In this document: piece after piece, positions 7,308 to 62,565 of the stretch
Numbering within the stretch: the first letter of the stretch is position 1
Layout: every line of letters begins with the position of its first letter
Assembly: GCA_015059285.1 (NCBI GenBank)
Contig: SVAS01000001.1
Coordinates: 68,217-132,216, forward strand
Length of the DNA stretch: 64,000 bases
DNA from: Bacillota bacterium
GTDB taxonomy: Bacteria > Bacillota_I > Bacilli_A > RF39 > UBA660
Reading direction: 5' to 3'
The notes under the pieces: model-generated
What the model was told of the DNA's origin: nothing
What the model saw: only the letters and a program-made list of their open reading frames with translations
The model's database searches: none
Translations under genes and position numbers: made by a program

Positions 7308-10127
7308 ATGTTTAATCATAGTGAAATAGAAAAAAAATGGAGAGAATATTGGGAAGAACACAATACTTTTAAAACTGATGTATGGGACTTTTCTAAACCA
7401 AAGTTTTATGCATTAGATATGTTTCCATATCCATCAGGAGTAGGTTTACATGCAGGACATCCTGAAGGATATACCGCAACTGATATTGTGTCTCGTATGA
7501 AAAGAATGCAAGGATATAATGTACTTCACCCAATGGGATTTGACTCTTTTGGTCTTCCTGCTGAACAATATGCAATAAGCACTGGAAATCATCCAGATGG
7601 ATTTACTAACGATAATATTAAAACTTTTAAAGAACAATTAAAATTATTGGGTTTATCTTATGATTGGGATAAAGAAGTATCAACTTGTGATCCAAATTAT
7701 TATAAATGGACACAATGGATATTTAAAAGGTTATATGAAGATGGACTTGCTAAATACGTTGATATGCCTGTAAACTGGTGTGAAGAATTAGGAACTGTAC
7801 TTGCTAATGATGAAATCATTGATGGTAAAAGTGAAAGAGGAGGATATCCTGTTGTTCGTAAAAATATGAAACAATGGGTTATAGATATACCTAAATATGC
7901 TGAAAAACTATTAGATGGTTTAAATGAAATTGATTGGCCAGAATCAACTAAAGAAATGCAAAGAAATTGGATTGGTAAAAGTATAGGAGCACATGTTAAA
8001 TTTAAAGTAAAAGATACTGATAAATCATTTACAGTATTTACTACTAGATGTGATACTTTATTTGGTGCTACTTACTGTGTTTTATCACCAGAACATGAAC
8101 TTGTAGATTTAATTACAACTAGTGATAAAAAAGAAGAAGTAGATGCTTATAAAAAGGTATGTGCTACTAAATCAGAAATGGAAAGAACAGAGCTCAATAA
8201 AGAAAAAACAGGTGTATTTATAGGAGCATATGCTATTAATCCTGTTAATAATAAAGAAATTCCTATTTGGATTTCAGATTACGTTCTAGCAACCTATGGA
8301 ACAGGAGCTATTATGGCAGTTCCTGCTCATGATGAAAGAGACTATGAATTTGCTAAAAAATTTAATATTGATATTATTCAAGTATTAGAAGAAGTTACAG
8401 GAACTCCTCATGAAAACGAATCTACAAAAAATAGTATCGTAGCTATTTTATATGATGAAAAAAACAATAATTATTTAACAATCAATTGGGGTAATTTAGG
8501 TGGTAGATTATTTATTGGGGGAAGCATTAAAGAAGGTGAAACACCTTTAGAATGCGCTATTAGAGAAGTAAAAGAAGAAACAGGCTATGTAAATATAGAA
8601 TTATTACAAGAATTACCTAAAATTAATCATCATTATTATGCTTATAATAAAGATAAATATTTTAATATTGAAAGTACTGGTTTTGTTTTCAAATTAGTTA
8701 ATGATGAAAAAATAGAACAAAACTTAGATGAAGATGAAAAATTCACTGTAGAATGGGTTTCAGAAGAAACAGTAAATAAAGAAATTACTGAACAATTACA
8801 TAAAAAGACTTATGAATATTATTTAAATAATGGTGCTATGTGTGGAGATGGTATTCACATTAATTCTGACTTTTTAAATGGTTTAAATAAAGAAGATGCT
8901 ATAAATAAAATGACTGAGTGGCTAGAAGAAAATAAGTTTGGTAATAAACAAATAAATTATCGTTTAAGGGAATGGATTTTTGCCCGTCAAAGATATTGGG
9001 GAGAACCAATACCAGTAGTTCATTTTGAAGATGGAACAAGTGCATCCATAGACGATTCTGAATTACCTTTAGTACTTCCAGAATTAGAAGATTATAGTCC
9101 AAGTAAAAGTGGAGCATCTCCACTTGAAAAAGCAACTGATTGGGTAAATGTAGAAATAGATGGTAAAAAAGCAAAAAGAGAAACTAGTACAATGCCTGGT
9201 TCAGCGGGTTCTAGTTGGTATTTCTTAAGATATATTGACCCACATAATGAAAATGCAATAGCAGATAAAAAACTATTAGAACATTGGTTACCAGTAGATC
9301 TTTATGTAGGTGGACCAGAACATGCAGTAGGTCATTTACTTTATTCTAGAATGTGGAATAACTATTTATATGATATAGGAGTTGTTCCAGTAAAAGAACC
9401 ATTTAAAAAATTAGTACATCAAGGAATGATATTAGGTGAAAATGGAATTAAAATGGGTAAAAGATATCCAGAATTTGCTGTTAACCCTAATGACATTGTA
9501 AAAGAATATGGTGCTGATACATTAAGGCTTTATGAAATGTTTATGGGACCTTTAGAAGCTGATAAACCATGGAGTAAAAAAGGTGTTGAAGGAGCTAGAA
9601 GATTTTTGGATCGTATATATAGACTATATACAGAAGAAAATAAAATTCAAGAAACACAAAATACAAATTTAGAAAAAATCTACAATCAAACAGTTAAAAA
9701 AGTAACAGAAGATTATGAAACATTAAACTTTAATACAGCAATTAGTAGTATGATGATATTCGTAAATGCAGTTTATAAAGAAGACATATTCCCAAAAGAA
9801 TATGCAGAAGGATTTGTTAAATTATTAAATCCAGTAGCCCCTTACTTAGCTGAAGAATTATGGAACTTATTAGGTCATAATGATACAATTGCATACGAAT
9901 CTTGGCCTACTTATGATGAAACTAAAATTGTAGATGAAACTTATACTATGATTGTACAAGTTAATGGTAAAGTACGTGGAAAAATAGAAGTTTCTACTGA
10001 TACAACAAATGACCAAATGGAAGAACTTGCTAAAACAAATGAAAATGTTATTAAAAATATTGAGGGAAAAGAAATTGTTAAAGTAATTGTTGTTCCTAAA
10101 AAATTAGTTAATATTGTAGTAAAATAA
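7308..10127 (+). CDS. leuS: leucyl-tRNA synthetase with inserted Nudix hydrolase domain
   Basis: Aligns end to end with B. subtilis LeuRS ([12 protein letters not shown] motif, KMGKR KMSKS motif), but about 145 extra residues lie between FEFAKKF and [14 protein letters not shown] and contain the Nudix box [23 protein letters not shown]. Confidence 0.95.
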
Positions 10128-10152
10128 ACACTAGAAAATCTAGTGTTTTTTA
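10128..10152 (+). terminator. leuS terminator
   Basis: hairpin acactagaaaatctagtgt followed by T-run. Confidence 0.7.
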
Positions 10153-10230: not shown

Positions 10231-11307
10231 ATGAAGAGAAAAGGATTTACCTTAATTGAACTGTTAGCAGTAATAGTAATACTAGCAATTATAGCGCTTA
10301 TTGCAGTGCCAGTTATTATGAACATTATCAGCAGTGCAAGAAAGAGTGCATTTGAGGATACAGCATATGGATTAATAAGTGCAGGGGAAATGTACTATGC
10401 AAACAATATATTAAGTGGAGCCACTTCTGATGATGTAGAATTTACAATTACAAATGGAGAATTTGTAGGAGAAAACAAATTAGAAGTAAAAGGTTCATTA
10501 CCAGCAAGTGGGAAAGTAAAGGTTACAAAAGATGGAAAAGTTGCAATTGCTGTAAATAATGGAAATTATTGTATAACAAAAGCAACAAGTGAAAGCAAAA
10601 TACAAACAGAAGAACTTGCAGGAGAATGTACTTATAGAAAGGTATTAAATCCAATAGTCACATCAACTGAGGCATGTATTACAAATGTAAATGAAATATG
10701 TGGTGATGATGTAATAAAAGCAGGAATCGCTGTTCAAGTAAAAGTAAATGATAAAGAAGAAGCAAAAACATTCTATGTGGTAAAAGATAATGCTACAACA
10801 GGAACATTAACATTAATCATGGATAGAAACATAGATCAAACAACAGTAGCGTGGATAACAAAAGAGGAATATTTAAGTGCAGGGGGAACAGAAGCAGAAT
10901 GGAGTTATGATGCTTATGGTTTTGGCACAGAAGGAAACTCTAATAAAGGTCCAATCACAGCGTTAAATTATTTAGAAAGCAAAACAGCAAATTGGACAAA
11001 CATTCATACTAAAAATTATACAGTTTCTGATGAACACGGAAAGTATATAGTAGAAAGAACAAACGCAAGGGCAAGAATGCTTTCAAAAACAGAAACATTG
11101 AGTTTAGGTTGTGTAATGTATGATGCAGGATGTCCAGTTTGGTTATATAATGGAATTGGATACTGGTTAAGTACTTCTGATACAGATTTCCCTATAACTG
11201 ATGCTTTAAATATGCCTAGTAGTGGTTATGTATCTGGTCTACCAATCTATCGCGATGATTATAGAGGTGTACGCCCAGTAATAGAAATACCTAAAACTAT
11301 AATATAA
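10231..11307 (+). CDS. type IV pilin-like protein paralog 1 (358 aa): prepilin N-terminus plus conserved C-terminal domain
   Basis: MKRKGFTLIELLAVIVILAIIALIAVP class III signal (G/F cleavage site, Glu at +5); C-terminal motifs TLIMDRNI, GPITALNYLE, ARARML, CPVWLY, GVRPVIEI. Confidence 0.85.
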   Translation: MKRKGFTLIELLAVIVILAIIALIAVPVIMNIISSARKSAFEDTAYGLISAGEMYYANNILSGATSDDVEFTITNGEFVGENKLEVKGSLPASGKVKVTKDGKVAIAVNNGNYCITKATSESKIQTEELAGECTYRKVLNPIVTSTEACITNVNEICGDDVIKAGIAVQVKVNDKEEAKTFYVVKDNATTGTLTLIMDRNIDQTTVAWITKEEYLSAGGTEAEWSYDAYGFGTEGNSNKGPITALNYLESKTANWTNIHTKNYTVSDEHGKYIVERTNARARMLSKTETLSLGCVMYDAGCPVWLYNGIGYWLSTSDTDFPITDALNMPSSGYVSGLPIYRDDYRGVRPVIEIPKTII

Positions 11308-11315
11308 TAATATAA

Positions 11316-11343
11316 AGTCTCAATAATTATTGAGATTTTTTTA
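11316..11343 (+). terminator. terminator after pilin-like paralog 1
   Basis: tataaagtctcaataattattgagatttttttattt hairpin plus T-run; resembles the pheT terminator that precedes paralog 2. Confidence 0.7.
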
Positions 11344-11388: not shown

Positions 11389-12777
11389 ATGTATGATGTA
11401 GTAATTGTTGGGGCAGGACCTGCTGGTATGTTTTCTGCTTATGAATTAATGGAAAATAATCCTAAATTAAAAGTATTATTAATAGATAAAGGTAAATTCG
11501 CATCTAATCGAGTTTGTCCTATGAAAAAAACAGGTAAATGTGTTAATTGTAATCCATGCGGAATATTATCTGGTTATGGTGGTGCTGGTACTTTTTCAGA
11601 TGGTAAATTAAATTTTATACCTAAATTAGGTAAATCAGATTTATTTAAATATATGAGTATTAGTGATGCTAATAAATTAATAGATGATACAGAAAAAATA
11701 TTTAATAAATTTAATATGGATAGTGATACTTATCCTACTAATATGGAAGAAGCAAGAAAAATAGGAGAAAAGATTGCTAAAGAAGGTGCTAATTTATTAA
11801 TTATAAAACAAAAACATTTAGGTTCGGATAAACTTCCTACTTATATTTCTGATTTTACTAATTATTTAAAAGAAAAAGGCGTAGAAGTTTTAGAAAATGC
11901 TGATGTGATTGATATTGAAGAAAATATTAATTATATCGTAAAATATAAAGAAAATGGTATTGATAAAGAAGTAAAAGCTAAATATGTTGTAGTAGCACCT
12001 GGTAGAACAGGAGCTAAGTGGGTACAAGAACTTGCTGATAAATATAAAATACCATATACTTCTCAAAGTATAGAAATAGGGGTTAGAGTAGAAGTTAGAA
12101 AAGAAGTTATGAAAGATTTATGTTCTATTATTTATGATCCTACAATATTTATTAAAACAGATACTTATAATGATCAAATAAGAACTTTTTGTACTAATCC
12201 AGAAGGTTTTGTGGCTAAAGAAAATTATTATGGATATATATGTGTGAATGGGCATGCTTTAAAAGATATTAAATCTAATAATTCTAATTTTGCATTTATT
12301 TCTAAAGTAGATTTAACTCATCCTGTAACTAATACTAGAGAATACGGTGAATCAATTGCTAAAATTGCCAATACACTTGGAGATGGAAAACCAATTGTTC
12401 AATCATTAAAAGATTTAAAAATGGGTAGACGTTCTACTATTGAAAGAATTAGTAGAGGTTTTATAGAACCTACTTTAAAAGATGTAGTAGCTGGAGATTT
12501 AGCATTAGTTTTACCTCATCGTATTATTAAAAATATTTTAGAGGGCTTAGAAACATTAGATAAAATTATTCCAGGTGTTAATAATGGAGAGACTTTATTA
12601 TATGGCCCTGAAATTAAATTCTTTAGTAATGAAATAACAACTGATAATAATATGAAATTAGAAGGTCATAATATTTATTTTATAGGTGATGGTGCTGGTA
12701 AAGCAGGAAATATTGTAGCTGCGGCCGCAACTGGACTTATTGCTTCTCGTGATATTTTAAGAAGGGAACAAATATGA
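11389..12777 (+). CDS. FAD-dependent oxidoreductase (COG2509-like)
   Basis: N-terminal Rossmann fold VVIVGAGPAGMFSA, Cys cluster CPMKKTGKCVNCNPCG, C-terminal GDGAG. Confidence 0.7.
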   Translation: MYDVVIVGAGPAGMFSAYELMENNPKLKVLLIDKGKFASNRVCPMKKTGKCVNCNPCGILSGYGGAGTFSDGKLNFIPKLGKSDLFKYMSISDANKLIDDTEKIFNKFNMDSDTYPTNMEEARKIGEKIAKEGANLLIIKQKHLGSDKLPTYISDFTNYLKEKGVEVLENADVIDIEENINYIVKYKENGIDKEVKAKYVVVAPGRTGAKWVQELADKYKIPYTSQSIEIGVRVEVRKEVMKDLCSIIYDPTIFIKTDTYNDQIRTFCTNPEGFVAKENYYGYICVNGHALKDIKSNNSNFAFISKVDLTHPVTNTREYGESIAKIANTLGDGKPIVQSLKDLKMGRRSTIERISRGFIEPTLKDVVAGDLALVLPHRIIKNILEGLETLDKIIPGVNNGETLLYGPEIKFFSNEITTDNNMKLEGHNIYFIGDGAGKAGNIVAAAATGLIASRDILRREQI

Positions 12778-13394
12778 TAGATTTATATGAGTATGAAAAT
12801 AATTTATATGCACAAAATATTAATTATATAGGTGGCGTTGATGAAGTAGGGAGAGGCCCTTTAATTGGTCCTGTTGTTGCATCTTGTGTAGTGCTTCCTA
12901 AAGATTTTATATTGGAAGGTTTAACTGATTCTAAAAAACTAAGTGAAAAGAAAAGAGATAAATTTTATTCTTATATTATAGAAAACGCTTTAGCTTATGG
13001 AATTGGTATTATAGGTCCTGAAATTATAGATCAAGTAAATATTTATCAAGCTTCTAAATTAGCAATGCTTGAAGCAATTAAACAGGTTAAGGAAAAGCTT
13101 CCTTTAGAACATGTATTAATAGACGCTATGCCTCTTGATTTAGATATTCCTTCAACTTCTATCATAAAAGGGGATAGTAAAAGTATTTCTATCGCTGCTG
13201 CAAGTGTAGTAGCAAAAGTCGTACGAGATAAAATGATGTATGATTTAGATTTAAAATATCCAGAATATGGATTTGCTAAACATAAAGGTTATCCTACTAA
13301 ATTACATTTAGAAAAAATAAAAGAATATGGACTTATTGATGGTTACCGTAAAACTTATGGTCCTATTAAAGAGTTAATGGAGGAGACAAAATGA
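12774..13394 (+). CDS. rnhB: ribonuclease HII
   Basis: GVDEVGRGPLIGPVV catalytic motif, correct size. Confidence 0.85.
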   Translation: MIDLYEYENNLYAQNINYIGGVDEVGRGPLIGPVVASCVVLPKDFILEGLTDSKKLSEKKRDKFYSYIIENALAYGIGIIGPEIIDQVNIYQASKLAMLEAIKQVKEKLPLEHVLIDAMPLDLDIPSTSIIKGDSKSISIAAASVVAKVVRDKMMYDLDLKYPEYGFAKHKGYPTKLHLEKIKEYGLIDGYRKTYGPIKELMEETK

Positions 13395-13633
13395 GTGATT
13401 TATTTTTTAGTAAAAATAAATTTGTAAATAATGAACCAGCAAAACTTGCTAAACCAATTGAACACGATCCTACTAAATTAGGTAGAAGAACAGTTGATGA
13501 TATTAAATTTGATATGCATATAATGAATAAACCTGAACTAAAAAAAGAACCTATTAAGGTTCAACCTACTAGAGCTAATCAAAATAATCAACTGGGTTCA
13601 TTAAAAGCATTTAAAGAGTGGAATAGAAAATGA
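13391..13633 (+). CDS. hypothetical protein (80 aa)
   Basis: translationally coupled ORF between rnhB and an MBL hydrolase; no motif. Confidence 0.4.
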   Translation: MSDLFFSKNKFVNNEPAKLAKPIEHDPTKLGRRTVDDIKFDMHIMNKPELKKEPIKVQPTRANQNNQLGSLKAFKEWNRK

Positions 13634-14151
13634 TTGTTGATACTTTTGTGCTAGGACCTTTACAAACAAATACTTATTTAATAAAAAAAGATAATAAGTG
13701 TTTAATAGTAGATCCGGCTTACGATTTTGAATTTATAAAAAGCCAAATAGGTAATTTAAATCTAGAAGCTATTTTAATTACTCATTATCACTTTGACCAT
13801 ATTGGAGCTTTAGACGTTTTAAAAAATTATTATAAAGTTCCTATTTATGATTATAGTACTAGCGAAAGTAACTCTAGTTTTAATTTCAAAATTATTCATA
13901 ATCCAGGACACACTTTAGATTCTGTTTCTTTTTATTTTGAAGAAGACAAGATGATGTTTGTAGGAGATTTTTTATTTAAAGGTTCTATTGGAAGAACTGA
14001 TTTAGATACTGGAAATGATTTTGATATGACAAATAGTTTAAAAAATATTATTAAGTATAATGATGATATTATTATTTATCCAGGACATGGTGAAAAAACA
14101 GTTTTAGGTTTTGAAAAAGAAAATAACCTATATTTAAAAAGACAAAAATAA
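13630..14151 (+). CDS. MBL-fold metallo-hydrolase
   Basis: HYHFDHIG (HxHxDH) metallo-beta-lactamase motif. Confidence 0.75.
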   Translation: MIVDTFVLGPLQTNTYLIKKDNKCLIVDPAYDFEFIKSQIGNLNLEAILITHYHFDHIGALDVLKNYYKVPIYDYSTSESNSSFNFKIIHNPGHTLDSVSFYFEEDKMMFVGDFLFKGSIGRTDLDTGNDFDMTNSLKNIIKYNDDIIIYPGHGEKTVLGFEKENNLYLKRQK

Positions 14152-14182
14152 TTGAGTACAGAATTAATTTATTAAACGTCAA

Positions 14183-14428
14183 TTACATTTTTGTCTTTTT
14201 GTTTTGTTCTTTATAGTTTTTAATATTAGTTCTTCCTACTATGTAATCTAAAGAAACATTATAGATATTTGATAAAGTAATAATATATTCTAATGGCATT
14301 TCTCTTTTACCAGATTCATATAAAGAATATTGTTGTTGAGTAATATGCAGAATTTTAGCTATGTCCGTTTGCGTCAAATCACGATCTTCCCTTAAATCTT
14401 TAATCCTTTGTAGATACATATTTATCAC
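14183..14428 (-). CDS. XRE-family helix-turn-helix transcriptional regulator
   Basis: LTQTDIAKILHITQQQYSLYESGKR HTH_3 pattern. Confidence 0.75.
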   Translation of the reverse strand: MINMYLQRIKDLREDRDLTQTDIAKILHITQQQYSLYESGKREMPLEYIITLSNIYNVSLDYIVGRTNIKNYKEQNKKTKM

Positions 14429-14633
14429 CCATAATTATTTTTTCATATGTTTGAGTTAATTTGGGTAATTTACATTTAAAAATGTGTATAAATGTGCCAA
14501 ACTTAGCTTCATATGTTTAAAAAAAAGCTTTTTATGCTTAAAAATATTATGGCTAATTTTTAGTAATTATATAGATATTCTTTATTTTTTATAAAATTAA
14601 TTGTATAATTATATTAGAATAGGGGCGAAAGTA

Positions 14634-15896
14634 ATGAGTGGCTTGAAAATTCCAAAATATAAAGAAATGTCAATGAAACATAAATTAAATGTTTATAGTA
14701 AACCTAAATATGTGTATATTCCTTTAATAAGTAGTAATGATGAAAATATCACAGTTTTAGTGAATATTGGTGATTATGTTTTTAAAGGTAGCCAAATAGG
14801 AAGAAGAAAAGGTAATTTTAAAACACCTATTTTTTCTAGTGTTAGTGGTAGTGTTATTGGTTTTGAAAAACGCACTATCTCTAGCGGAAAAAGTGTTAAA
14901 TGCGTTGTTATCGAAAATGACTTTAAAGAAAAAATAGAAAAAGGTTTTAAACAAGTTAAAAAATTAAATAATATAACAAAAGAAGAATTTGTTGAGACTA
15001 TAGAAAATTGTGGCATTGTTGGATTAGGTGGTGCTGGATTTCCTACATATGTAAAATATAGTACTCATCAAAAAATTCATACTTTAATTGTAAATGCGGT
15101 TGAATGTGAACCATATATTACAGCTGACTATTTTATTATTAAAGAAAAATGTGAAGAAATATTAGAAATGATAGATGCTATATTAGAAATCAACAATATT
15201 GATAACTGTATTATAGCTATTAAAACAACTAATAAATCTTTGATGACAATTTTTAACAAATATATAGGTACTTATTTAAAAATAAAAGTAGTACTAGTTC
15301 CAAACATTTATCCTATGGGATGGGAGAGAAAACTTATTAAAGAAGTAACTGGTATTACTTATGAAAAAATACCAAGTGAAAAAGGAATTATAGTAAATAA
15401 CGTTTCAACTATATATGCTATGTATCAAGCTTTAAAACTTAATAAACCAATGATTGAAAGAATTGTAACGTTTTCTGGATTTGGACTAAAAAAACCTCAA
15501 AATGTTTTAGTTAAAGTAGGAACTCCAGTAGATGAAGTAATTAATTATATTGGTGGTAGTTATAAAACTAAAAAATTGGTTATGATTGCTGGAGGACCCA
15601 TGATGGGTACTAAAGTAGATGATTTAGTTATTACTCCTGAGGTAAATTCTGTTTTAATTATGGAAGATGATTTTGAGTGTGACGTACAAGAATGTTTAAG
15701 ATGTGGAAAATGTATAAATGTATGTCCTGCTAATATATGTCCTGTTTTAATTAAAGATAATATAGATGATACTAGTGCTTTAAAGAGTATGAATGTAGAT
15801 AAATGTATTAGTTGTGGACTTTGTTCTTATATATGTCCTGCTAAAATAAATGTTAGAGAATATGTTAGTATAGCTAAAGAAAAGGTGGGTAAATAA
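14634..15896 (+). CDS. rnfC: Rnf complex subunit C
   Basis: GLGGAGFPT NADH-binding motif plus two CxxCxxCxxxCP ferredoxin motifs; ATG at 14634 preferred over 14601. Confidence 0.85.
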   Translation: MSGLKIPKYKEMSMKHKLNVYSKPKYVYIPLISSNDENITVLVNIGDYVFKGSQIGRRKGNFKTPIFSSVSGSVIGFEKRTISSGKSVKCVVIENDFKEKIEKGFKQVKKLNNITKEEFVETIENCGIVGLGGAGFPTYVKYSTHQKIHTLIVNAVECEPYITADYFIIKEKCEEILEMIDAILEINNIDNCIIAIKTTNKSLMTIFNKYIGTYLKIKVVLVPNIYPMGWERKLIKEVTGITYEKIPSEKGIIVNNVSTIYAMYQALKLNKPMIERIVTFSGFGLKKPQNVLVKVGTPVDEVINYIGGSYKTKKLVMIAGGPMMGTKVDDLVITPEVNSVLIMEDDFECDVQECLRCGKCINVCPANICPVLIKDNIDDTSALKSMNVDKCISCGLCSYICPAKINVREYVSIAKEKVGK

Positions 15897-15897
15897 C

Positions 15898-17322
15898 ATG
15901 GATAAAATAAAAGGTCCTTATATGAAATCTAAAAATACTACTAATAAAATGATGATGCATTTAGTTATTTCTTTAATTCCAATTATTTTATTTAGTTTTT
16001 ACAAAAATGGAATACTTCCATATTATCACAATAAAACAACTTTATTAGGTATGTATTATCCATTAATATTTATTTTAATTTCTACTTTCGCAACAACTTT
16101 ATTTGAAGGATTGTACGCCAAAATATTTTTAAAAGAAAAAAATTTAAAAAAATATTCAATTAACTCTTATAGTTTTATACCAGGTTTATTTTTAGGACTT
16201 ATTTTACCTATAAATACTCCAATATCTATTTTAATATTTGGTTCAATGGTTGCTAGTATATTAGGAAAAATGTTGTTTGGTGGATTTGGTAATAATATTT
16301 TTAATCCTGCTTTAATAGGTAGATTATTTATTATATCTACTTATGCGATAGTAATAACTAATAATGGAGGATATTTAAATAGTTATGAAGTAGATACAAT
16401 TAGTAAAGCAACACCTTTATCAAATGTTGCAACTGTTACTGGAATTGGATCTTATGAAACTTTAGTAGAACCATATGGAAGTTTAACTGATTTTTTCGTA
16501 GGTACTATTCCAGGCGCAGTAGGTGAAACTAGTGCATTATTATGTATTATTGCTTTTATTTATTTAACCATTACTAAAACAATTAAATGGCGAATTCCAC
16601 TCTTTTATATAAGTACAGTGTTTATAATGACTTTATTAATAGGATCTATTAATAAAGTAGGTATTTGGTATCCATTATTTCAAATATTTAGTGGAGGATT
16701 AATGTTTGGAGCTATATTTATGGCAACCGATCCGGTAACTAGTCCTACTACTAAAATGGGACAAATAATATATGGGTTATCTTTAGGTATTTTAACAGTT
16801 GTATTTAGATATTTAACCCCTTATCCAGAGGGTGTTTTAACAAGTATTTTAACCATGAATATGTTAGTATTCATTATTGATAAAATTGGTTTAAAGGCTA
16901 AAATGGATTATAAAAAAGCTATTTTACCACTTATATTCCTTGCTATTTTAATTATTGAATTACCAATTTCTATCTCTACTAGATATAAAGTAGAAGATGT
17001 AGGAGATCCTAATTTTAATATTATTAGTAGTAAAGAAGAAAATAATAATGTAATTTATGTAGTTACTCAAAAAGGATATGTAGGAGATATAAAAGCTCAA
17101 ATTACAATTAATAATTCTAAAATAACTTCTTTAGAGATTTTAGAACAAAATGAAAGTTTCTATCAAAAGATAGTGGACGCTAATTATATTAATAAGCTAT
17201 TAAATGAACAAAACAATATAGATAATGTTGATACTGTAAGTGGAGCAACTATTACTTCTTCTGCTATTAAAAAAATGGTTATAAATACTTTAGAAGATTA
17301 TGGTGAAAAATATGAAGGATAA
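15898..17322 (+). CDS. rnfD-rnfG: Rnf subunit D fused to Rnf subunit G (FMN-binding)
   Basis: RnfD core (FGGFGNNIFNPA, MATDPVTSP), then an extra TM helix and an FMN-binding domain with SGATITS. Confidence 0.8.
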   Translation: MDKIKGPYMKSKNTTNKMMMHLVISLIPIILFSFYKNGILPYYHNKTTLLGMYYPLIFILISTFATTLFEGLYAKIFLKEKNLKKYSINSYSFIPGLFLGLILPINTPISILIFGSMVASILGKMLFGGFGNNIFNPALIGRLFIISTYAIVITNNGGYLNSYEVDTISKATPLSNVATVTGIGSYETLVEPYGSLTDFFVGTIPGAVGETSALLCIIAFIYLTITKTIKWRIPLFYISTVFIMTLLIGSINKVGIWYPLFQIFSGGLMFGAIFMATDPVTSPTTKMGQIIYGLSLGILTVVFRYLTPYPEGVLTSILTMNMLVFIIDKIGLKAKMDYKKAILPLIFLAILIIELPISISTRYKVEDVGDPNFNIISSKEENNNVIYVVTQKGYVGDIKAQITINNSKITSLEILEQNESFYQKIVDANYINKLLNEQNNIDNVDTVSGATITSSAIKKMVINTLEDYGEKYEG

Positions 17323-17406
17323 AATAAAAGGTATAATTGTTTTAACTTTAACTGCTTTAATTTGTTCTAGTATACTTTATATAATTTTAAAAAGTGTAGG
17401 TGAAAT

Positions 17407-18051
17407 ATGAAAACAATAGTAAATGGAATAATAAAAGAAAATCCTACTTTTGTATTACTTTTAGGATTGTGTCCAGCATTAGCAGTTACTACAAAAGTAG
17501 AAAATGCTTATTTAATGGGATTATGTGTATTAATAGTTTTATTGATATCTTCATTAATTGTATCAATTATAAAAAAGTTAATACCAGAGAGTGTAAAATT
17601 ACCAGTATATATTTTAATAATTGGAACTATTGTTACAGTATTAGAAATAATTTTAAAAAACTATATTCCAGTATTACATCAAATACTAGGTATTTATTTA
17701 CCGTTAATTGTTGTTAATTGTATTGTTTTAGGTAGAATAATTTCCGTGTCATCTAAAGAAAAAATAGGTTATAGTTTAAAAGATGCATTAGGAATCGGAT
17801 TAGGTTTTACTCTAGCAATTACCGTAATAGCACTATTTAGAGAAGTGCTTGGAACTGGTTTAATTACTTTAATGGATGCGACAAGTTCAATAACAGGTTA
17901 TAGGGCAATTTACCAAATAATTCCTAGTAATAATCTTTTACCTATATCTATTTTAACTACTCCTGCAGGAGCATTCTTAATACTAGGTTTATTAATACCA
18001 CTATTTAATTATATAAAAGATAAAGGGGGTAAGAAAAGTGAACTTAATTAG
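17407..18051 (+). CDS. rnfE: Rnf subunit E
   Basis: NPTFVLLLGLCPALAVTT signature of the RnfE/NqrD family. Confidence 0.85.
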   Translation: MKTIVNGIIKENPTFVLLLGLCPALAVTTKVENAYLMGLCVLIVLLISSLIVSIIKKLIPESVKLPVYILIIGTIVTVLEIILKNYIPVLHQILGIYLPLIVVNCIVLGRIISVSSKEKIGYSLKDALGIGLGFTLAITVIALFREVLGTGLITLMDATSSITGYRAIYQIIPSNNLLPISILTTPAGAFLILGLLIPLFNYIKDKGGKKSELN

Positions 18052-18607
18052 TTTGTTTATTACCGGAATGCTCACTGAAAACGTTATTTTATCTAAGTTT
18101 TTAGGATTGTGTCCTTTCTTAGGAAGTTCTAATAAAGAAAAAACTGCTTTATATATGGGTAGTAGCGTAACTATTGTTGTAACTTTATCTAGTATTTTAA
18201 CATATTTAATTTATCATTATATATTAGTTCCAACTAACACCACTTATTTAAGAACTTTAATGTTTATTTTAATTATTGCATTTTTAGTTCAATTAGTAGA
18301 ACTTATATTAAAAAGATTTCTACCAAATATTCATAAAAGTTTAGGTATTTATCTACCGCTTATTACAACTAATTGTGCAGTACTTGGTATCACATTATTA
18401 AATATTAATAATAGTTTTACTTTCTGTGAAATGTTAGTATATAGTATAGCTTCATCTTTAGGGTTTACACTTGTTATTTATATTTTCGCAACTATTCGTG
18501 AAAGATTAGAAAAGTGTAAAGTGCCTAAATACTTTAAAGGTATTCCTATTGCTTTAATAACAGCTTTTATTATGTCGCTTTTATTTGGAAGGTATATACC
18601 AAGTTGA
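18038..18607 (+). CDS. rnfA: Rnf subunit A
   Basis: NVILSKFLGLCPFLG signature of the RnfA/NqrE family. Confidence 0.85.
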   Translation: MNLISLFITGMLTENVILSKFLGLCPFLGSSNKEKTALYMGSSVTIVVTLSSILTYLIYHYILVPTNTTYLRTLMFILIIAFLVQLVELILKRFLPNIHKSLGIYLPLITTNCAVLGITLLNINNSFTFCEMLVYSIASSLGFTLVIYIFATIRERLEKCKVPKYFKGIPIALITAFIMSLLFGRYIPS

Positions 18608-18704
18608 TAGCATTTATCTTACTTATCATTTTATTTAGTTTAACTTGCTTTTTATATACTAAAAATAAAAATCATAATTGTTTAAATTGCAAGGGGTGTA
18701 AAAA

Positions 18705-18956
18705 ATGATAGGAATATTAATATTAACAATCACGGCCTTCATTTTAAGTATTATTCTAGTGCTTTCAATTGAAGAAAGTAAACTAGATGATAAAGAAATA
18801 CTTAAAAATTTGCCAGGTTTAAACTGTGGAACATGTGGCTTTGGAAGTTGTAAAGGAATGGTAGAAGCTATAAAAGAAAATAAAGATAATTATTTAAAGT
18901 GTCGACCTTTAAGAGGAGAAAAGAAAGAAAACTTAGAAAGAATATTAAATAAATAG
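18705..18956 (+). CDS. rnfB: minimal RnfB (83 aa; TM helix plus N-terminal Fe-S domain only)
   Basis: LPGLNCGTCGFGSC-x16-C matches the RnfB N-terminal C-x2-C-x4-C-x16-C cluster; no ferredoxin domains follow. Confidence 0.65.
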   Translation: MIGILILTITAFILSIILVLSIEESKLDDKEILKNLPGLNCGTCGFGSCKGMVEAIKENKDNYLKCRPLRGEKKENLERILNK

Positions 18957-19003
18957 TGGACAAAATAAATTAATTTATAAAAATCATATTCTTAATTAGG
19001 AGT

Positions 19004-19708
19004 GTGATTTTTTTGTTTAAAAAAATATTGAAGTTATTATTTAAAGATTTTTATTTGTTTTCTGCGGCTTATTCTAATAATCTTTTTCCAGAACCTTTGA
19101 CAAAAGAAGAAGAGAATGAATGTGTTAAAAAAGCTAAATTAGGAGATAGTGAGGCTAGGAACAAACTTATTGAACACAATTTAAGATTAGTCGCTCATAT
19201 TGTAAAAAAATATGATCATAAAAAAGAAGAAATTGATGATTTGATTAGTATAGGAACTGTAGGTTTAATAAAGGGAGTTGATAGTTATTCTTATAAACAT
19301 GGAACCCGTATTACAACGTACTGTGCTAGGTGTATTGAAAATGAAATATTAATGTATTATCGTAGTGATAAAAAAAATAATAAAAATATAAGTATAAATG
19401 AATCTATTGGTTTTGATAAAGATGGTAATGAAATAACTTTTTTAGATATATTAAAAACACCAAAACCAGATTTCGCATTAGATATTCATAAGCAGAATAA
19501 TATAGAAGCTTTAAAAGAGTATTTTAATGTTTTAAATGAAAGAGAAAAAGAAATTATTATTAAAAGATATGGACTTAATAATGAAGATGAAAAAACACAA
19601 AAAGAAATAGCTTCAGATTTGGGTATTTCTAGAAGTTATGTATCGCGTATTGAAAAAAGAGCTTTAACTAAAATGCTTAAAGAATTTATAAAAAACAAAG
19701 ATAATTAA
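19004..19708 (+). CDS. sigK: sporulation-type sigma factor with pro-sequence (SigK-like, SigE/SigK family)
   Basis: LFPEPLTKEEE...NKLIEHNLRLVAHIVKKY...LISIGTVGLIKGVDSY...CIENEILMYYR closely matches B. subtilis pro-sigma K; the start may be TTG at 19013 rather than GTG at 19004. Confidence 0.75.
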   Translation: MIFLFKKILKLLFKDFYLFSAAYSNNLFPEPLTKEEENECVKKAKLGDSEARNKLIEHNLRLVAHIVKKYDHKKEEIDDLISIGTVGLIKGVDSYSYKHGTRITTYCARCIENEILMYYRSDKKNNKNISINESIGFDKDGNEITFLDILKTPKPDFALDIHKQNNIEALKEYFNVLNEREKEIIIKRYGLNNEDEKTQKEIASDLGISRSYVSRIEKRALTKMLKEFIKNKDN

Positions 19709-19753
19709 AAGTATAAATTTTTGTTAATTGTGAATAATAAAAATGGTGATAAT

Positions 19754-20302
19754 ATGTCAAGATGTTTAATTGTAGTAGGATCTAGAAGAGATGGTAACTC
19801 TTTAAAACTTGGTAAAAAAATAAAAGAAGAATTAAAAAAAGAAAGAATAATAAGCAATATAATTGTGCCTGGTAATCAAAAAATATATGTGTGTACTGGT
19901 TGTATGGATTGTGACCAAAATGGTGTTTGTGATTTTTATGATGATATGATTTCTAATATAGATAAAGTAAATAAAGCAGATACAATTATTTTTATAACTC
20001 CAACTAGATGGAATTTACTTTCAGGTGATATTAAAATATTTATGGATAGATTAAATCCATTATATGTTCCTAAAAAATTAGAAAATAAAAAAGCAATAGC
20101 AATTGCTATAGGAAGTTCATCTAAAGAAAATTTTAGTACAAATGGAGCTCTTAGTTCTATAGATAGTTTTTGTGAAAATGCTAAAATGAAATTAATATTA
20201 AAATATCAGTTTAATAATTGTTTAGATAGTGATGATATTTTAAGTAAAACAGAAGATATTAATAAAATGTTAAACGAAATAAAGAAAAAATTAAAAAACT
20301 AG
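19754..20302 (+). CDS. flavodoxin-like NADPH-dependent FMN reductase / iron-sulfur flavoprotein family
   Basis: MSRCLIVVGSRRDGNS flavodoxin-like fold N-terminus; GGTGA RBS; ATG at 19754 preferred. Confidence 0.55.
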   Translation: MSRCLIVVGSRRDGNSLKLGKKIKEELKKERIISNIIVPGNQKIYVCTGCMDCDQNGVCDFYDDMISNIDKVNKADTIIFITPTRWNLLSGDIKIFMDRLNPLYVPKKLENKKAIAIAIGSSSKENFSTNGALSSIDSFCENAKMKLILKYQFNNCLDSDDILSKTEDINKMLNEIKKKLKN

Positions 20303-26641: not shown

Positions 26642-26649
26642 CATATATA

Positions 26650-26679
26650 AAGTCTCTAGATTTTCTAGAGATTTTTTTA
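26650..26679 (+). terminator. pheT terminator
   Basis: tataaagtctctagattttctagagattttttt hairpin plus T-run. Confidence 0.75.
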
Positions 26680-26756: not shown

Positions 26757-27863
26757 ATGAAGAAAAAAGGTTTCACGTTAATTGAACTATTAGCAGTAAT
26801 AGTAATACTAGCAATAATAGCGCTTATAGCAGTACCAGTAATAATGAATATTATAAGTAGTGCAAGAAAGAGCTCGTTTGAGGATACTGCATATGGAATA
26901 ATTAGTGCCGGTGAATTATACTATGCTGAAAAGTTGCTTGAACCAAATGGAATGACTAGTGATGCAGAATTTACATTTACAAATGGAAGAGTTACTCCAA
27001 CAGGATTAAATGTAAAAGGTTCATTACCAAAAAGTGGTTCAATGGTAGTAACAAAAGAAGGAAAAATAGCAATCGCAATAACTAATGGAGAATTATGTAT
27101 AACAAAAGGATATGATGATAGCAAAATAGAAACATTAGAAGAATTTGAAAGTTGTGACTTACCAGCAAAAAAATTAAGTGAGCTTGTAAAAACAAATGAT
27201 TTTGCGGAAAGTGTAGATGCGTGTGCGACGAGCGGAACATGTTCATCAGGAACGCCATTTGCAATCGAAGTAGCCCCTGGAAATATTCAAAATTTCTATG
27301 TAATCAGTGATGTAAATAATGTAGTAACACTAATTATGGATAGAAACATTGGTAATACAGTGGCTTGGATTACTCAAGGTGATTATAATGACGATGATTC
27401 TTGGGAAGTTTGTTATGAAGAAGGTACTATAGAAGAGTGGTGTGAATATGGAAATAGTAATAAAGGACCAATAACAGCATTAAATTACTTAGAAATACAA
27501 ACATCAGGATGGACAAATATAGAGGCAAAGAATTACACATTAACAGATGATAATACAACACCAAAATACACAATTGAAAGAACAGGAGCTAGAGCAAGAA
27601 TGTTAACCAAAACAGAAGCGTTAGCAGTAGGATGTAGTGGATGGTATGACGGAGATGAAGCTACATGTCCAGACTGGTTATATGGTAATTTAGATGATAA
27701 TGCAGTTCCTTGGGGTTACTGGACAAGTTTTGCTGATGCGGACACTACTCACCTCGTTTGGTTTGTAGAAAATGATGGTTCTATGAACTTAACCGACCCG
27801 GAATATGGCTACTATGATGGCTACTACTATGGTGTGCGCCCAGTTATTGAAGTTTCAAAATAA
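26757..27863 (+). CDS. type IV pilin-like protein paralog 2 (368 aa)
   Basis: MKKKGFTLIELLAVIVILAIIALIAVP; C-terminal motifs TLIMDRNIGNTVAW, NSNKGPITALNYLE, GARARMLTKTE, CPDWLYGNL, YGVRPVIEVSK. Confidence 0.85.
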   Translation: MKKKGFTLIELLAVIVILAIIALIAVPVIMNIISSARKSSFEDTAYGIISAGELYYAEKLLEPNGMTSDAEFTFTNGRVTPTGLNVKGSLPKSGSMVVTKEGKIAIAITNGELCITKGYDDSKIETLEEFESCDLPAKKLSELVKTNDFAESVDACATSGTCSSGTPFAIEVAPGNIQNFYVISDVNNVVTLIMDRNIGNTVAWITQGDYNDDDSWEVCYEEGTIEEWCEYGNSNKGPITALNYLEIQTSGWTNIEAKNYTLTDDNTTPKYTIERTGARARMLTKTEALAVGCSGWYDGDEATCPDWLYGNLDDNAVPWGYWTSFADADTTHLVWFVENDGSMNLTDPEYGYYDGYYYGVRPVIEVSK

Positions 27864-27873
27864 TAAATTTATA

Positions 27874-27904
27874 AAGAATAGTAAAATTTACTATTCTTTT
27901 TTTA
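27874..27904 (+). terminator. terminator after paralog 2
   Basis: agaatagtaaaatttactattct hairpin plus T-run. Confidence 0.75.
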
Positions 27905-48193: not shown

Positions 48194-49336
48194 ATGAAAA
48201 TACTTAAAAAAGATAATCAAGAACTTGACGTAAAAAAAATTAATGAAGTTGTTGGAGTGTCTAAAAGGATTCTTAAAATAGCTTATATTTTGTTTATTGT
48301 TTTAGCTATCTATGTTTTTATTAAGGTAAGCAAAGAACTAAATATAATGAATTTTTTAATAACACTTTTGAAAATAGTTTCACCACTATTTATTGGTATT
48401 GTTATAGCATGGCTATTTAATCCGATTGTTACATATTTACAAAAAAAAGGTATGAGAAGAGGTTTAGGAGCAACACTTTCATATTTTGCATTAGTTGGTT
48501 TATTAACTATTGTAATTTGGTCTATAGTGCCAACCTTATCTGAACAAATAAATGATTTTGCTGGTATGATACCACAATTATTCGATACTATAAAGGAGTG
48601 GATTGATACTATTTTTGAAGGATTAAATAATATTGAAAGTTTTGATGCTCTTGCTATCAAATCCGATTTATTTAAAGCCATTGAAGAATTTGGGGTTAAT
48701 TTAACTAATTCACTTCCAACGATGGTAGTTAATATTATTAGTTCATTGTTTTCAGGACTTGGTACAATTTTAATTGGGTTAGTGATAGGATTTTATTTAT
48801 TAATTAGTGTTGATGGAACTGATAATCTAATTAATTTATTACCTAAGAAGATGCAAGAGACAACTCGTGATTTATTAACTGAAATAGATGGTTCTTTTAG
48901 AAGTTTTGTTCAAGGGGCGCTTTTAGATTCAACATTCGTATTTATTATTACATCTATTGGATTTTCTTTAATAGGATTAAAAGCACCACTATTCTTTGGA
49001 CTTTTCTGTGGAATTACTAATGTTATTCCATATGCAGGACCTTATATAGGTGGGGCACCTGCTGTTATAGTAGGTTTTTCACAAGGAATTCCAACAGGAA
49101 TATTAACTTTAGTGGTAATTGTTTTAATTCAATTTTTAGAAGGTAATTTCTTACAACCTTTAATAATGAGTAAAACAACTAAATTACATCCTGTTACAAT
49201 CATGTTAGGTCTTTTAGTCTTTGGTTATTTCTGGGGAATTATTGGTATGGTTATTTCAACTCCAATAATTGCTGCTTCTAAAGCAATTTTGATGTTTTTA
49301 GACGAAAAATATGATATACTATCATTTAGTGATTAA
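48194..49336 (+). CDS. AI-2E family transporter (UPF0118/PerM)
   Basis: 8 TM topology and conserved Gly-rich C-terminal half typical of AI-2E. Confidence 0.7.
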   Translation: MKILKKDNQELDVKKINEVVGVSKRILKIAYILFIVLAIYVFIKVSKELNIMNFLITLLKIVSPLFIGIVIAWLFNPIVTYLQKKGMRRGLGATLSYFALVGLLTIVIWSIVPTLSEQINDFAGMIPQLFDTIKEWIDTIFEGLNNIESFDALAIKSDLFKAIEEFGVNLTNSLPTMVVNIISSLFSGLGTILIGLVIGFYLLISVDGTDNLINLLPKKMQETTRDLLTEIDGSFRSFVQGALLDSTFVFIITSIGFSLIGLKAPLFFGLFCGITNVIPYAGPYIGGAPAVIVGFSQGIPTGILTLVVIVLIQFLEGNFLQPLIMSKTTKLHPVTIMLGLLVFGYFWGIIGMVISTPIIAASKAILMFLDEKYDILSFSD

Positions 49337-49371
49337 AGCGATGAAGAAAGAAAGTAGAATAATTTGTTTTT

Positions 49372-49530
49372 AAAGAGAGTTAGTGGTTGGTGGAAACTAA
49401 TAAATAAATTATTTGAAAGCTACTTTCTGAGTATAGTAAAAACTATCGGAAAAATCCGTTATCAAAATTAAGAACAAATTAGGATGGTACCACGGTTTTT
49501 TCGTTCCTAGAAAATAACCGTGGTTTTTTT
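49372..49530 (+). promoter_or_regulatory. T-box riboswitch leader (Ala specifier GCU) upstream of the dNMP-kinase-like/cmk/alaS operon
   Basis: agagagttagtggttggtggaaac, gaaaGCUa specifier context at 49429-49431, T-box ggatggtaccacgg, terminator ccacggtt...aaccgtgg plus U7. Confidence 0.85.
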
Positions 49531-50094: not shown

Positions 50095-50737
50095 AATAGT
50101 TGCGATAGATGGTCCTGCTGGAAGTGGTAAAGGAACAGTTGCTGAAATACTTTCAGAAAAATGTAATTTAATCAATATTGATACAGGAGCTACTTATAGA
50201 TGTGTAGCACTAGCCGCCTTAAATAATAATTTAACTTTAGATAATGTAGATGAAATAGTAGAATTATCTGGTAAAATCAAAATAGAATTTACACCTGATA
50301 AACGTGTTTTATTAGATAATAAAGATGTAACTGATGCAATTAGAAGTAAAGAAGTAACTAGTATAGTGTCTCCTATTTCTAGTATTTTAAAAGTTAGAGA
50401 AAACATGGTTAAACTTCAAAGAGAAATGGCAAAAAACTATGATGTTGTAATGGAGGGAAGAGATATTACAACAGTAGTTTTACCAAATGCTAATTATAAA
50501 TTTTATTTAGATGCCACATTAGAAGAAAGAGCAAATAGAAGATATAAACAATATCAAGAAAAAGGAATTGATATGACTTTAGAAGAAATAAAAGAAAATA
50601 TATCAAAAAGAGATTATAATGATATGCATAAAGAAGTGGGTTCACTAATTAGAACAGATGAACAAGTATATATAGATTCTACTAATATGACGATTGAAGA
50701 AGTAGTAAATAAAATGATAGAAGTAATTGAGGAGTGA
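50087..50737 (+). CDS. cmk: cytidylate kinase
   Basis: IAIDGPAGSGKGT, full Cmk fold. Confidence 0.9.
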   Translation: MSKIVAIDGPAGSGKGTVAEILSEKCNLINIDTGATYRCVALAALNNNLTLDNVDEIVELSGKIKIEFTPDKRVLLDNKDVTDAIRSKEVTSIVSPISSILKVRENMVKLQREMAKNYDVVMEGRDITTVVLPNANYKFYLDATLEERANRRYKQYQEKGIDMTLEEIKENISKRDYNDMHKEVGSLIRTDEQVYIDSTNMTIEEVVNKMIEVIEE

Positions 50738-50741
50738 TATA

Positions 50742-52491: not shown

Positions 52492-52513
52492 AGATTTTAT
52501 ATCTGTTTTTTTT
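52492..52513 (+). terminator. alaS terminator
   Basis: cagattttatatctg hairpin plus T8. Confidence 0.7.
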
Positions 52514-52519
52514 GTTTGT

Positions 52520-52640
52520 GATTTATGTTATAGAAACCACTTTAATTATAGTTTTATGTATAATAAAAATGTCAACGATAGCAAAATAAAACATAATGTT
52601 ATTGACAACAAAATATTTATGTTATAAAATTATTTTAGAA
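52520..52640 (+). promoter_or_regulatory. conserved dual promoter and long leader of pilin-like paralog 3
   Basis: extended -10 TGTATAAT at 52557-52564; TTGACA-16-TATAAA at 52602-52629; repeated tTATGTTATA motifs; about 85% identical to the region upstream of paralog 4. Confidence 0.6.
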
Positions 52641-52718
52641 CAATATGTTATACAAGGTAAATAAATGTATAAAAGGATAAAAGGTTGTTCAAAATAAGAA
52701 AGAAGGAGTGGAAAGAAA

Positions 52719-53711: not shown

Positions 53712-53766
53712 GATGTTTATCAAATAGTGTTAGTGAACAATGATTTGATATGGATAACTGTATAAG

Positions 53767-53796
53767 AAAGGATGATAAAAATCATCCTTTTATAAT
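53767..53796 (+). terminator. terminator after paralog 3
   Basis: aaaggatgataaaaatcatccttttat; the same hairpin core follows the dacF-like gene upstream of paralog 4. Confidence 0.65.
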
Positions 53797-53804
53797 GCCT
53801 TTAA

Positions 53805-54030
53805 TCAAGAAAATTCGTGCGATAAAGTAATCATACTTTCTATAACAAAAGGTAATTCTTTTAAGTATTTTAACTTTACAAATTTTTTAACCCCCCATTT
53901 AATAATATTGTTATCAGAATCATTAACAGAACCACAATGTGGACAAAATTTGTGTTTATAGGTTAAAATTGTTTCAATTACCTTATAATTTTTAATAACT
54001 TTTTCTTCAATGTTATTTAAAATAAATAGA
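53805..54030 (-). pseudogene. probable ISL3-family transposase N-terminal remnant (zinc-finger region only)
   Basis: The minus-strand frame gives NIEEKVIKNYKVIETILTYKHKFCPHCGSVNDSDNNIIKWGVKKFVKLKYLKELPFVIE, which resembles the ISL3 transposase N-terminal zinc-finger region; it has no start codon and no catalytic part. Confidence 0.35.
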
Positions 54031-54498
54031 TTAAGATATTTAATATTTAGTAAATTTTATATATAATTATTATTAGATATGTTTCAGTGTTTGTTTTGTT
54101 GCTTACATTGTATCAGACTAAACATCTTTTTTAACAAAAAATAGTTGAGCGAGATTTTCTAACCAACACTATTTATAATACAACCCAAACAAAACTTCAA
54201 GGCTTGTTTTGTTATAATATGAAGAAAGTACTTCTATAGAAAACCTATTATTCACTTAGTAGTAAGTGAATTTAAAGTTACATAAACTAAAGGTTGATGC
54301 AGTGAGTTTAATTTAGGTGAGTTTATATTGAAAGATGAACCAAATAATGATAAGATTTTTTAAAATAGTAAAGGTCAATTAATTATAATAGATTTAAACT
54401 AGGTACATAATAATGTTTTTTTAATAAATACAAATACTAATTGAAAAAAGTTATTATTCGTGATAAAATGTAGGTGTATTCATAAAGTAGGTGAAATT

Positions 54499-62346: not shown

Positions 62347-62372
62347 AGGATGATTAAATTCATCCTTTTATT
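62345..62372 (+). terminator. terminator after the carboxypeptidase gene
   Basis: aaaggatgattaaattcatcctttt hairpin. Confidence 0.65.
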
Positions 62373-62377
62373 TATGT

Positions 62378-62500: not shown

Positions 62501-62565
62501 CAAACTAAACAAATGCATAAAAGAATAAAAAGTTGTTCAAGATAAGAAAGAAGGAGTGGAATAGT

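Follow-up and report, generated by a model that had tools for sequence, protein, structure and literature searches.

Dispersed modular type IV pilin genes with a lectin-like head as probable targets of one diversity-generating retroelement in a Bacillota genome

What are four solitary, oversized pilin-like genes doing between the housekeeping operons of a very AT-rich bacterial genome, and what makes their 3' ends differ? The question is raised by a 64,000-nt stretch of Bacillota bacterium assembly GCA_015059285.1 (contig SVAS01000001.1, forward-strand positions 68,217 to 132,216), hereafter the window, which carries the paralogs that we call p1 to p4 (Table 1). An earlier note, made from the letters alone, had flagged p1 and regarded the four as a surface adhesin or pseudopilin family. 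We consider it probable that they belong to a dispersed family of modular type IV pilins with a lectin-like C-terminal head, and that the variable region (VR) of this head is rewritten by one diversity-generating retroelement (DGR) on another contig. The observation that carries this reading concerns p4, which the DGR targets from a distance: its VR was written from a template repeat at a locus that we call L093.

Architecture and size of the family

All four genes are open reading frames (ORFs) on the plus strand, located where the earlier note had placed them, and their products share 39-62% pairwise identity (E-values of 1e-48 to 1e-141, all-against-all). The frame of p4 extends 5' in the ORF listing to a TTG at 62533. 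Neither tblastn nor a prepilin-motif scan found a fifth copy in the window. The proteins have the N-terminus KGFTLIELLAVIVILAIIALIAVPVIMNIISSAR in common, with the cleavage motif KG/FTLIELLAVIVILAIIALIAVPVIMNIISSAR (KG/FTLIE, the slash marking the cut), which is a class III signal with Glu at +5; in the leader of p1 the cut is predicted after G5. PF07963 (32-36 bits, cutoff 21.2) and TIGR02532 (33-34 bits, cutoff 16.3) matched p1-p4 above their cutoffs, bearing out the near-identical prepilin leader described from the sequence. The C-terminal motifs quoted with it were likewise all found in the family (TLIMDRNI, SNKGPITALNYLE, WTNI, ARARML, CP.WLY, G[YF]W and G[VI]RPVIE), with p3 deviating most: it has TLIMNSNL and VRSRLL as variants and lacks both CP.WLY and the Cys114/Cys133 pair.

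The earlier note was right that the family is multi-copy, but its number was too low, as the genome holds about 17-25 scattered members. Searching with p2 returned 6,286 relatives at E<1e-5, and p2 itself has an identical counterpart in a 'Firmicutes bacterium' metagenome-assembled genome (MAG) from which p4 also comes. For sixteen family entries the longest listed contig is a single one of 575,737 bp; p3 adds another copy, and eight more entries with the same MAG label lie on contigs of 194,706, 120,087, 105,183 and 74,778 bp. Accession order runs parallel to contig size across the block, which is consistent with one assembly. Further copies at two loci (L004 and L092) are likewise solitary and placed between unrelated genes. 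Relatives were found in gut and rumen MAGs labelled Tenericutes, Bacilli, Mollicutes or Mycoplasmatota.

We modeled p2 with AlphaFold (AF2) using 113 homologues (predicted local distance difference test, pLDDT, 91; predicted template-modeling score, pTM, 0.82). The model has the pilin fold, in which a long alpha1 helix (the N-terminal helix spans 53 residues) packs on an antiparallel beta-sheet head, followed by a C-terminal module whose fold is that of the solved Lcl C-terminal domain. In p1 the pilin part reaches to about aa 117-135 and the lectin-fold part begins at about aa 140. The VR sits on this C-type-lectin fold at the C-terminus, in agreement with the lectin- or adhesin-like fold that the earlier note had thought plausible.

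By sequence, the C-terminal module is a distant relative of Lcl_C/DUF1566 and DUF6273. Weak matches to DUF6273 (PF19789) were found in 32 of the 113 family members (best E 2.8e-4) and to Lcl_C/DUF1566 (PF07603) in 11 of them (best E 1.9e-5), and NCBI annotates several paralogs as 'DUF1566 domain-containing'. Comparing the family profile with PDB sequences gave a match limited to the pilin N-terminal helix. Searched on its own against 1.84 billion cluster representatives, the module had 801 relatives at E<=1e-3, which are mostly about 330-370 aa long with a prepilin-like N-terminus; it also occurs in tandem duplicate or joined with Big_2 domains. The earlier view of an appended C-terminal module, here lectin-like, is supported, although its distant Lcl_C/DUF1566 and DUF6273 relatives mean that it is not wholly family-specific. 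Separately, on the window's own contig but about 30 kb upstream of its start, a 456-aa protein with a weak DUF6273 match adjoins a NAGPA-family gene (L092 12878-14248).

These results bear on the alternative that the earlier note had set against its own proposal, namely that the proteins are ordinary ComG competence or type II secretion (T2SS) pseudopilins whose machinery lies elsewhere. The ComGC, GspG and PilA models do match p1-p4 weakly, within the N-terminal 25-60 residues that comprise the leader and helix. However, every score against the NCBIfam equivalogs (ComGC/D/E/F, GspG/H/I/J and PilA) fell far under its cutoff, for example 26-27 bits versus 75 for ComGC and 24-26 versus 88.85 for GspG. 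The length of the proteins (330-368 aa), their lectin-fold module and their DGR VR also speak against it. Contradicted already by family scores, fold and the template comparison below, this explanation is scarcely credible.

The retroelement, its template and its targets

Variation among close relatives of p4 centres on about 35 residues between W-L-S-S-A and GVRPVIE. Paralogs resembling p4 are 93-94% identical in the body and 25-32% identical in the VR, which is hypervariable even inside 90%-identity clusters 1 and 2. Lys, Glu, Gln and Met make up 4.9% of VR residues versus 17.3% of the body, and nearly all residues at variable VR positions are those of NNY codons. At the DNA level, the window has a mean GC content of 26.4%, and its most GC-rich 90 nt are p4 positions 63499-63588 (65.6%, z 6.7). 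GC content at third codon positions (GC3) is 0.56 in the p4 VR versus 0.14 in the gene body. For p2 it is intermediate (0.40 in the tail versus 0.17 in the body), in the p1 tail it equals that gene's own body at 0.16, and in the p3 tail it is not raised (0.12). The NNY-type residue bias and the GC spike are signatures of a DGR variable region.

No template repeat or reverse transcriptase (RT) was found in the window by short-word BLAST of the four 3' ends or by an RT-motif scan. We sought DGR cassettes by an RT-motif scan of 79 related loci, an RT profile search and then cluster look-ups, which brought out paralogs with hypervariable VRs in the window's own MAG. A cassette with RT and Avd beside a 104-nt template lies at L093, on another contig of the window's MAG. 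The template encodes SANADNANNAWNVNNDGNVNNNNVNNDNNYGVRP, and the family member P0275 (MBE6144531.1), directly downstream, is its adjacent target. P0275 and p4 (MBE6144073.1) fall in one accession block. Another member, P0274, lies about 25 kb upstream of the window start on the JGI contig of the p2 locus.

Apart from two 3-nt deletions, the p4 VR is colinear with the L093 template. All 24 mismatches fall on the 33 A-sites, with a chance of 8e-16 (hypergeometric). Template-compatible VRs occur at no fewer than three loci by DNA and in 24 sequences at the protein level, among the family members compared from this MAG and related assemblies. Confinement of mismatches to template adenines holds for p4, whereas p2 is degenerate and p1 and p3 have no template match except for a remnant, GGTGTACGCCCAG, in p1. 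The earlier suggestion of diversifying selection thus captured the variability, but the mechanism is targeted adenine-specific mutagenesis by a DGR, limited to about 100 nt at the 3' end.

We also considered an explanation with no retroelement, in which the many paralogs exchange sequence by recombination or gene conversion, as Neisseria does with pilE/pilS, and positive selection acts as well. Consistent with such exchange, many paralogs have near-identical 5' ends and upstream regions in common, and a p4-like gene at locus L006 stands in another upstream context. Recombination may act additionally, but it leaves the VR pattern unexplained, since changes are limited to template adenines (0/65 to 0/67 non-A mismatches), the template repeat adjoins RT and bAvd, and alleles of the same locus differ inside the VR only. 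As the main mechanism it is already contradicted and very improbable.

The DGR is active at its adjacent target. Cassette and target were recovered together in three metagenomes (L093, L095 and L097) with an identical template in all three, and across 7,065 aligned nt all 38 variable columns lie inside 86 nt of the target's VR. One of the three alleles has a 3-nt insertion, which indicates that codon indels arise here and makes the deletions in p4 unremarkable. In addition, P0280 and P0275 have the 5' half of the VR in common (SAYADYAGSAWYVGYDGYV) and differ in the 3' half alone, which would be the expected product of partial, 3'-anchored retrohoming.

How a remote VR might be recognized is suggested by its 3' border. 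The template and all template-compatible VRs contain the GC-rich 13-mer GGTGTGCGCCCAG, which is followed by ATTTC in the template and by TTATCGAA in the VRs. Beyond it, about 125 nt are near-identical in three template-compatible targets at three loci, and locus-specific terminators come after. By alignment this flank is missing from p1, p2, p3, P0046 and P0039. An imperfect long hairpin is predicted within it (z -2.1 to -3.5), and neither p4 nor L087 has a classical GC-rich hairpin right after the VR. We infer from the pattern of conservation that the flank may hold target-recognition signals, comprising an initiation of mutagenic homology (IMH) site and structure, and is thus a candidate cis element.

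The VRs of the window and its relatives form a series of decay. The order from p4, to p2 and P0046, to p1 and p3 parallels decreasing GC3, and would reflect erosion of disused VRs by the AT pressure of the genome.

Other retroelements came to light beside pilin-family genes in the scan of 79 loci. The target of an independent DGR in a related Bacilli MAG (L077, 9989-13962) is 548 aa long and has a prepilin N-terminus, and every template/VR mismatch is on a template adenine. Its VR is of a different, FGE-sulfatase-like type, with an ATCGC-GAA-GCGAT hairpin right 3' of the stop codon. The existence of this second system implies that pilin carriers were joined to DGR heads more than once. The RT profile search added L086/L087, where MutS_I-like, bAvd and RT genes accompany a template that encodes the scaffold of the family. 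In the member that lies 2.6 kb downstream (360 aa), 22 of 36 A-sites are changed and no internal non-A mismatch occurs. We rejected the L086 and L089 templates as the source for the window because they are colinear with none of its VRs. RT P0206 (L089), which co-occurs with the p2 locus in an ENA sample, was rejected for its different template class. Two metagenome contig scans with a 'base-or-A' pattern made from the p4 VR gave no match; the pattern was gapless and at first overran the 5' end of homology, and the failure follows from the two codon deletions in p4.

At L093 itself, a T4SS_pilin gene (PF18895, 6846-7355) precedes the cassette, and Abi_2, Fic, EcoRI-methylase and GmrSD/HNH genes follow it at 11869-20130. 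This gene content suggests that the cassette may lie in a mobile or defence island.

Table 1. Features of the pilin-like genes, their variable regions and the retroelement. Positions are those of the window unless a locus is named; non-A, mismatches at template positions other than adenine; A-sites, template adenines substituted.
Feature	Position	Strand	Observation or evidence
p1, modular pilin paralog, 358 aa	10231-11307	+	ORF listing, PF07963/TIGR02532, alignment
p2, modular pilin paralog, 368 aa, used for structure model	26757-27863	+	
p3, most divergent paralog, 330 aa	52719-53711	+	ORF, alignment
p4, modular pilin paralog, 351 aa	62566-63621	+	identical to NCBI MBE6144073.1 and P0306
p4 VR	63495-63592	+	non-A 0/65; A-sites 24/33; two 3-nt deletions
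P0274			non-A 0/67; A-sites 21/37
P0275, adjoins DGR			non-A 2/67; A-sites 19/37
P0277, adjacent locus in another sample			non-A 1/67; A-sites 18/37
P0284, adjacent locus in another sample			non-A 0/67; A-sites 20/37
P0046			non-A 12/67, mostly C-to-T; A-sites 18/37
p2 degenerate former VR	27731-27843	+	non-A 13/64; A-sites 18/37; 12 gap columns
p1 remnant of VR 3' boundary	11266-11278	+	1 mismatch
GC-rich 13-mer, 3' limit of template/VR homology	63580-63592	+	IMH-like boundary
Conserved 3' flank, ~125 nt, extending across stop codon	63593-63717	+	alignment of p4, P0274, P0275
MutS_I-like protein	L093 7525-7950		30.1 bits
bAvd	L093 7932-8288		49.8 bits
Reverse transcriptase	L093 8251-9453		RVT_1, 64.3 bits
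Template repeat, 104 nt	L093 9537-9640		37 A
Terminator-like hairpin of leuS, separating p1 from upstream operon	10126-10148	+	
Terminator-like hairpin before p2	26649-26675		
Terminator-like hairpin before p4	62345-62368		
Promoter-like site for p3	52602-52630	+	TTGACA-17-TAAAAT, 11/12
Promoter-like site for p4	62450-62478	+	TTGACA-17-TAAAAT, 11/12
Hairpin and T run 3' of p1	11314-11339	+	DNA fold
Hairpin and T run 3' of p2	27873-27899	+	DNA fold, z -4.8
Hairpin and T run 3' of p3	53767-53790	+	DNA fold, z -5.7
Intrinsic-terminator-like hairpin, then T run, 3' of p4	63720-63745	+	fold of 63715-63760, -9.2 kcal/mol, z -3.9

Predicted pilus display and the genomic setting

The reading that we prefer is as follows. 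A class III (prepilin) signal peptide, a hydrophobic alpha1 helix and a small pilin head form the carrier, to which is joined the C-type-lectin-fold module, with the last ~35 residues before the invariant GVRPVIE as its VR. Template RNA is reverse-transcribed with misincorporation opposite adenines, after which cDNA replaces the VR in target genes, both adjacent and remote. The VR of p4 was written in this way; that of p2 is old and degenerate, and those of p1 and p3 have decayed to leave the scaffold only. Prepilin peptidase would cleave the proteins, which would then join a type IV filament, where they would probably serve as minor or tip subunits. The ligand-binding surface displayed in this manner would be hypervariable and would serve adhesion in the gut, where the glycan or protein ligands change.

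Several observations weigh against this account. Neither the GspE/PilB Walker-A motif nor the A24-peptidase motif occurs in the 64-kb window, which holds no gene for a prepilin peptidase, a PilB/ComGA ATPase or a platform protein; nor did the further loci read from this MAG show any assembly machinery. Neither Lcl_C nor DUF6273 matches p1-p4 themselves at E<=1, leaving both short of the gathering score. The placing of the DGR contig in this genome depends on how the MAG was binned and on the order of accessions, together with the perfect matches between template and VR. The two genes without a template match include p1, the gene originally flagged; for p1 and p3 the DGR link would be a historical one, drawn from the common scaffold. 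Finally, the p4 VR is invariant. The exact p4 protein occurs on 14 contigs, and two p4 alleles with 15 variable body columns have identical VRs, implying that remote retrohoming is rare or now off at p4. Rewriting of remote sites would seem to be rare, unless p4 has become fixed.

The same parts could also be put to a different use, in which the proteins are DGR-diversified surface receptors and the prepilin leader is just a membrane anchor or export signal with no extended pilus, comparable to T2SS-like pseudopilins or archaeal sugar-binding proteins with class III signals. None of the copies seen has pilus genes nearby, the genes are dispersed and monocistronic, and among the 79 related loci the PilD motif was found in 1 and the PilB Walker-A motif in 0. 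Yet the whole pilin fold is retained (long alpha1, Glu5 and beta head), which would be needless in a pure anchor. A related Mycoplasmatota MAG also has PilC and PilD beside a modular pilin, and the characterized modular pilins PilB and PilC of Streptococcus sanguinis do enter filaments (PMC8179133, PMC9934059). We regard the anchor-only explanation as unlikely, and favor incorporation into a filament because the pilin module is complete. Pilus assembly in the host of p1-p4 is predicted, as is an adhesin function.

In the Mycoplasmatota MAG (L074, 774-7586), the genes encode a 770-aa PilC-like protein (T2SSF) and an A24 prepilin peptidase (PilD), and the modular pilin, which has BspA-type leucine-rich repeats, lies 2.7 kb beyond them. 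About 30 kb upstream of the window start on the same contig (L092 4394-4762), a 122-aa short pilin-like ORF with a weak N_methyl match could be a major pilin.

Within the window, the lack of pilB, pilC, pilD and comG genes near p1-p4 noticed earlier was borne out, and the view that this is not a conventional pilus operon is supported. The genes had further been described as solitary, each with its own promoter and terminator. Terminator-like hairpins or gaps do set them apart from the upstream housekeeping genes leuS, pheT, alaS and dacA, and hairpins with T runs follow all four. Strong promoter-like sites were found for p3 and p4, and none passed the scan for p1 and p2. Four T-box leaders and Pfam assignments back the housekeeping context. 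We rejected an origin as a prophage or phage receptor-binding protein, the flanks being aminoacyl-tRNA synthetase (aaRS), cell-division and sporulation genes and T-box leaders.

About 200 nt upstream are common to paralogs at 80-90% identity, including TTGACA-17-TAAAAT (window 62370-62565 and 52509-52718; L004 3806-4000 and 6750-6958), which implies that the genes were duplicated along with their promoter. The upstream region of p4 is in common with paralog P0046 (L004 3806-4961 versus window 62370-63529, 89.5%). The p4-like gene at L006 (4000-5435 versus window 62565-64000) has 96% nucleotide identity, with the VR and downstream region identical, and lies behind a different class I aaRS, with homology breaking precisely at the pilin gene start. 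This junction arose by recombination at the conserved 5' end, unless the assembly is chimeric.

Some neighboring features are unusual in their own right. The leucyl-tRNA synthetase upstream of p1 (7308-10127, plus strand, 939 aa) has a NUDIX hydrolase insert (PF00293, 57.5 bits) at aa 377-503, just after the editing domain; the class I aaRS upstream of the L006 gene has 803 aa and no NUDIX insert. The alanyl-tRNA synthetase upstream of p3 (50727-52490, plus strand) has only 587 aa, consisting of the catalytic domain and a short tRNA_SAD without the long C-terminal region, and a T-box leader lies upstream at 49332-49511. The ~750 nt 3' of p3 (53712-54459) contain several promoter-like sites, with no ORF of at least 80 aa and no Rfam match at the gathering score.

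Relation to known systems and significance

Much of what is combined here is known already, including DGRs with DUF1566-class lectin-fold and remote targets, modular pilins, and DGR-diversified type V pilins. Among DGR variable proteins, the closest kin are those classed as DUF1566/Fib_succ_major ('category d', with CLec2 VRs), for example LdtA of Legionella, and also TvpA of Treponema denticola, which has seven remote targets (Wu et al. 2018, PMC5758913). As in those systems, the VR is C-terminal in a C-type-lectin fold with an end motif of G-x-R-P/C type, the template is rich in AAY codons, changes are adenine-specific, the cassette combines bAvd and RT, and one DGR has several dispersed remote targets. 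Unlike LdtA, with its lipoprotein/twin-arginine translocation (TAT) signal, and the lipoprotein TvpA, the carrier here is a type IV pilin module; moreover, the family is much larger (~17-25), has an active-to-fossil series of VRs and shows codon indels in VRs.

Among pilins, S. sanguinis PilB (vWA module) and PilC (ConA-like lectin module) likewise join a class III signal and small pilin module to a C-terminal binding module (PMC8179133, PMC9934059). Those genes are single-copy, in the pil operon and not hypermutated, whereas the genes here are solitary, multi-copy and DGR-diversified. The tip adhesins of Bacteroides type V pili (bioRxiv 10.1101/2024.11.15.621889) also combine a pilus subunit, a C-type-lectin-fold head and DGR rewriting in a gut bacterium, and their DGR has an extra accessory gene beside Avd, as here. 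Type V pili are nevertheless unrelated, being built from lipoprotein precursors by strand exchange in diderm Bacteroidota as opposed to type IV pilins in monoderm-type Bacillota. The Legionella Lcl C-terminal domain (PDB 8Q4E) and the N-terminal C-type lectin-like domain of T. ramosa IgAse (PDB 9QA6; PMC12237041) have only 17-18% identity to the module and, unlike the family here, are neither hypervariable nor fused to pilins.

Our literature search found no description of DGR-driven hypermutation of type IV pilins. We take the InterPro entries IPR011460 and IPR011871 to be DUF1566 and Fib_succ_major, respectively. Dataset S1 of PMC8179133 lists the architectures IPR012902-IPR011460 (7 proteins) and IPR012902-IPR011871 (40 proteins). 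One survey includes a 'GspG-type pilin' among rare VR-bearing domains as a passing list entry (PMC11661182), and Roux et al. 2021 make no mention of pili.

A more ambitious proposal, on which we lean slightly toward doubt, is that one chromosomal DGR serves about 20 dispersed pilin adhesin genes through the ~125-nt 3' element, that genes losing this element freeze and decay, and that the outcome is a pilus-displayed, antibody-like repertoire in a gut Bacillota that has not been cultured. If true, the genome holds a readable series from actively rewritten, to recently fixed (p4), to fossil (p2, then p1 and p3). For DGR biology, the family offers a natural multi-target system and a decay series inside one genome; it also supplies evidence that codon indels arise in retrohoming, and a cis element that is a candidate for the recognition of remote targets. 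In practical terms, a sharp 3' GC spike in a gene of a very AT-rich genome is a cheap annotation flag for a DGR VR. For pilus biology, the 'modular pilin' design would be able to carry a programmable binding site, and its rewriting by a DGR would be a third route to pilus variation besides pilE/pilS recombination and phase variation.

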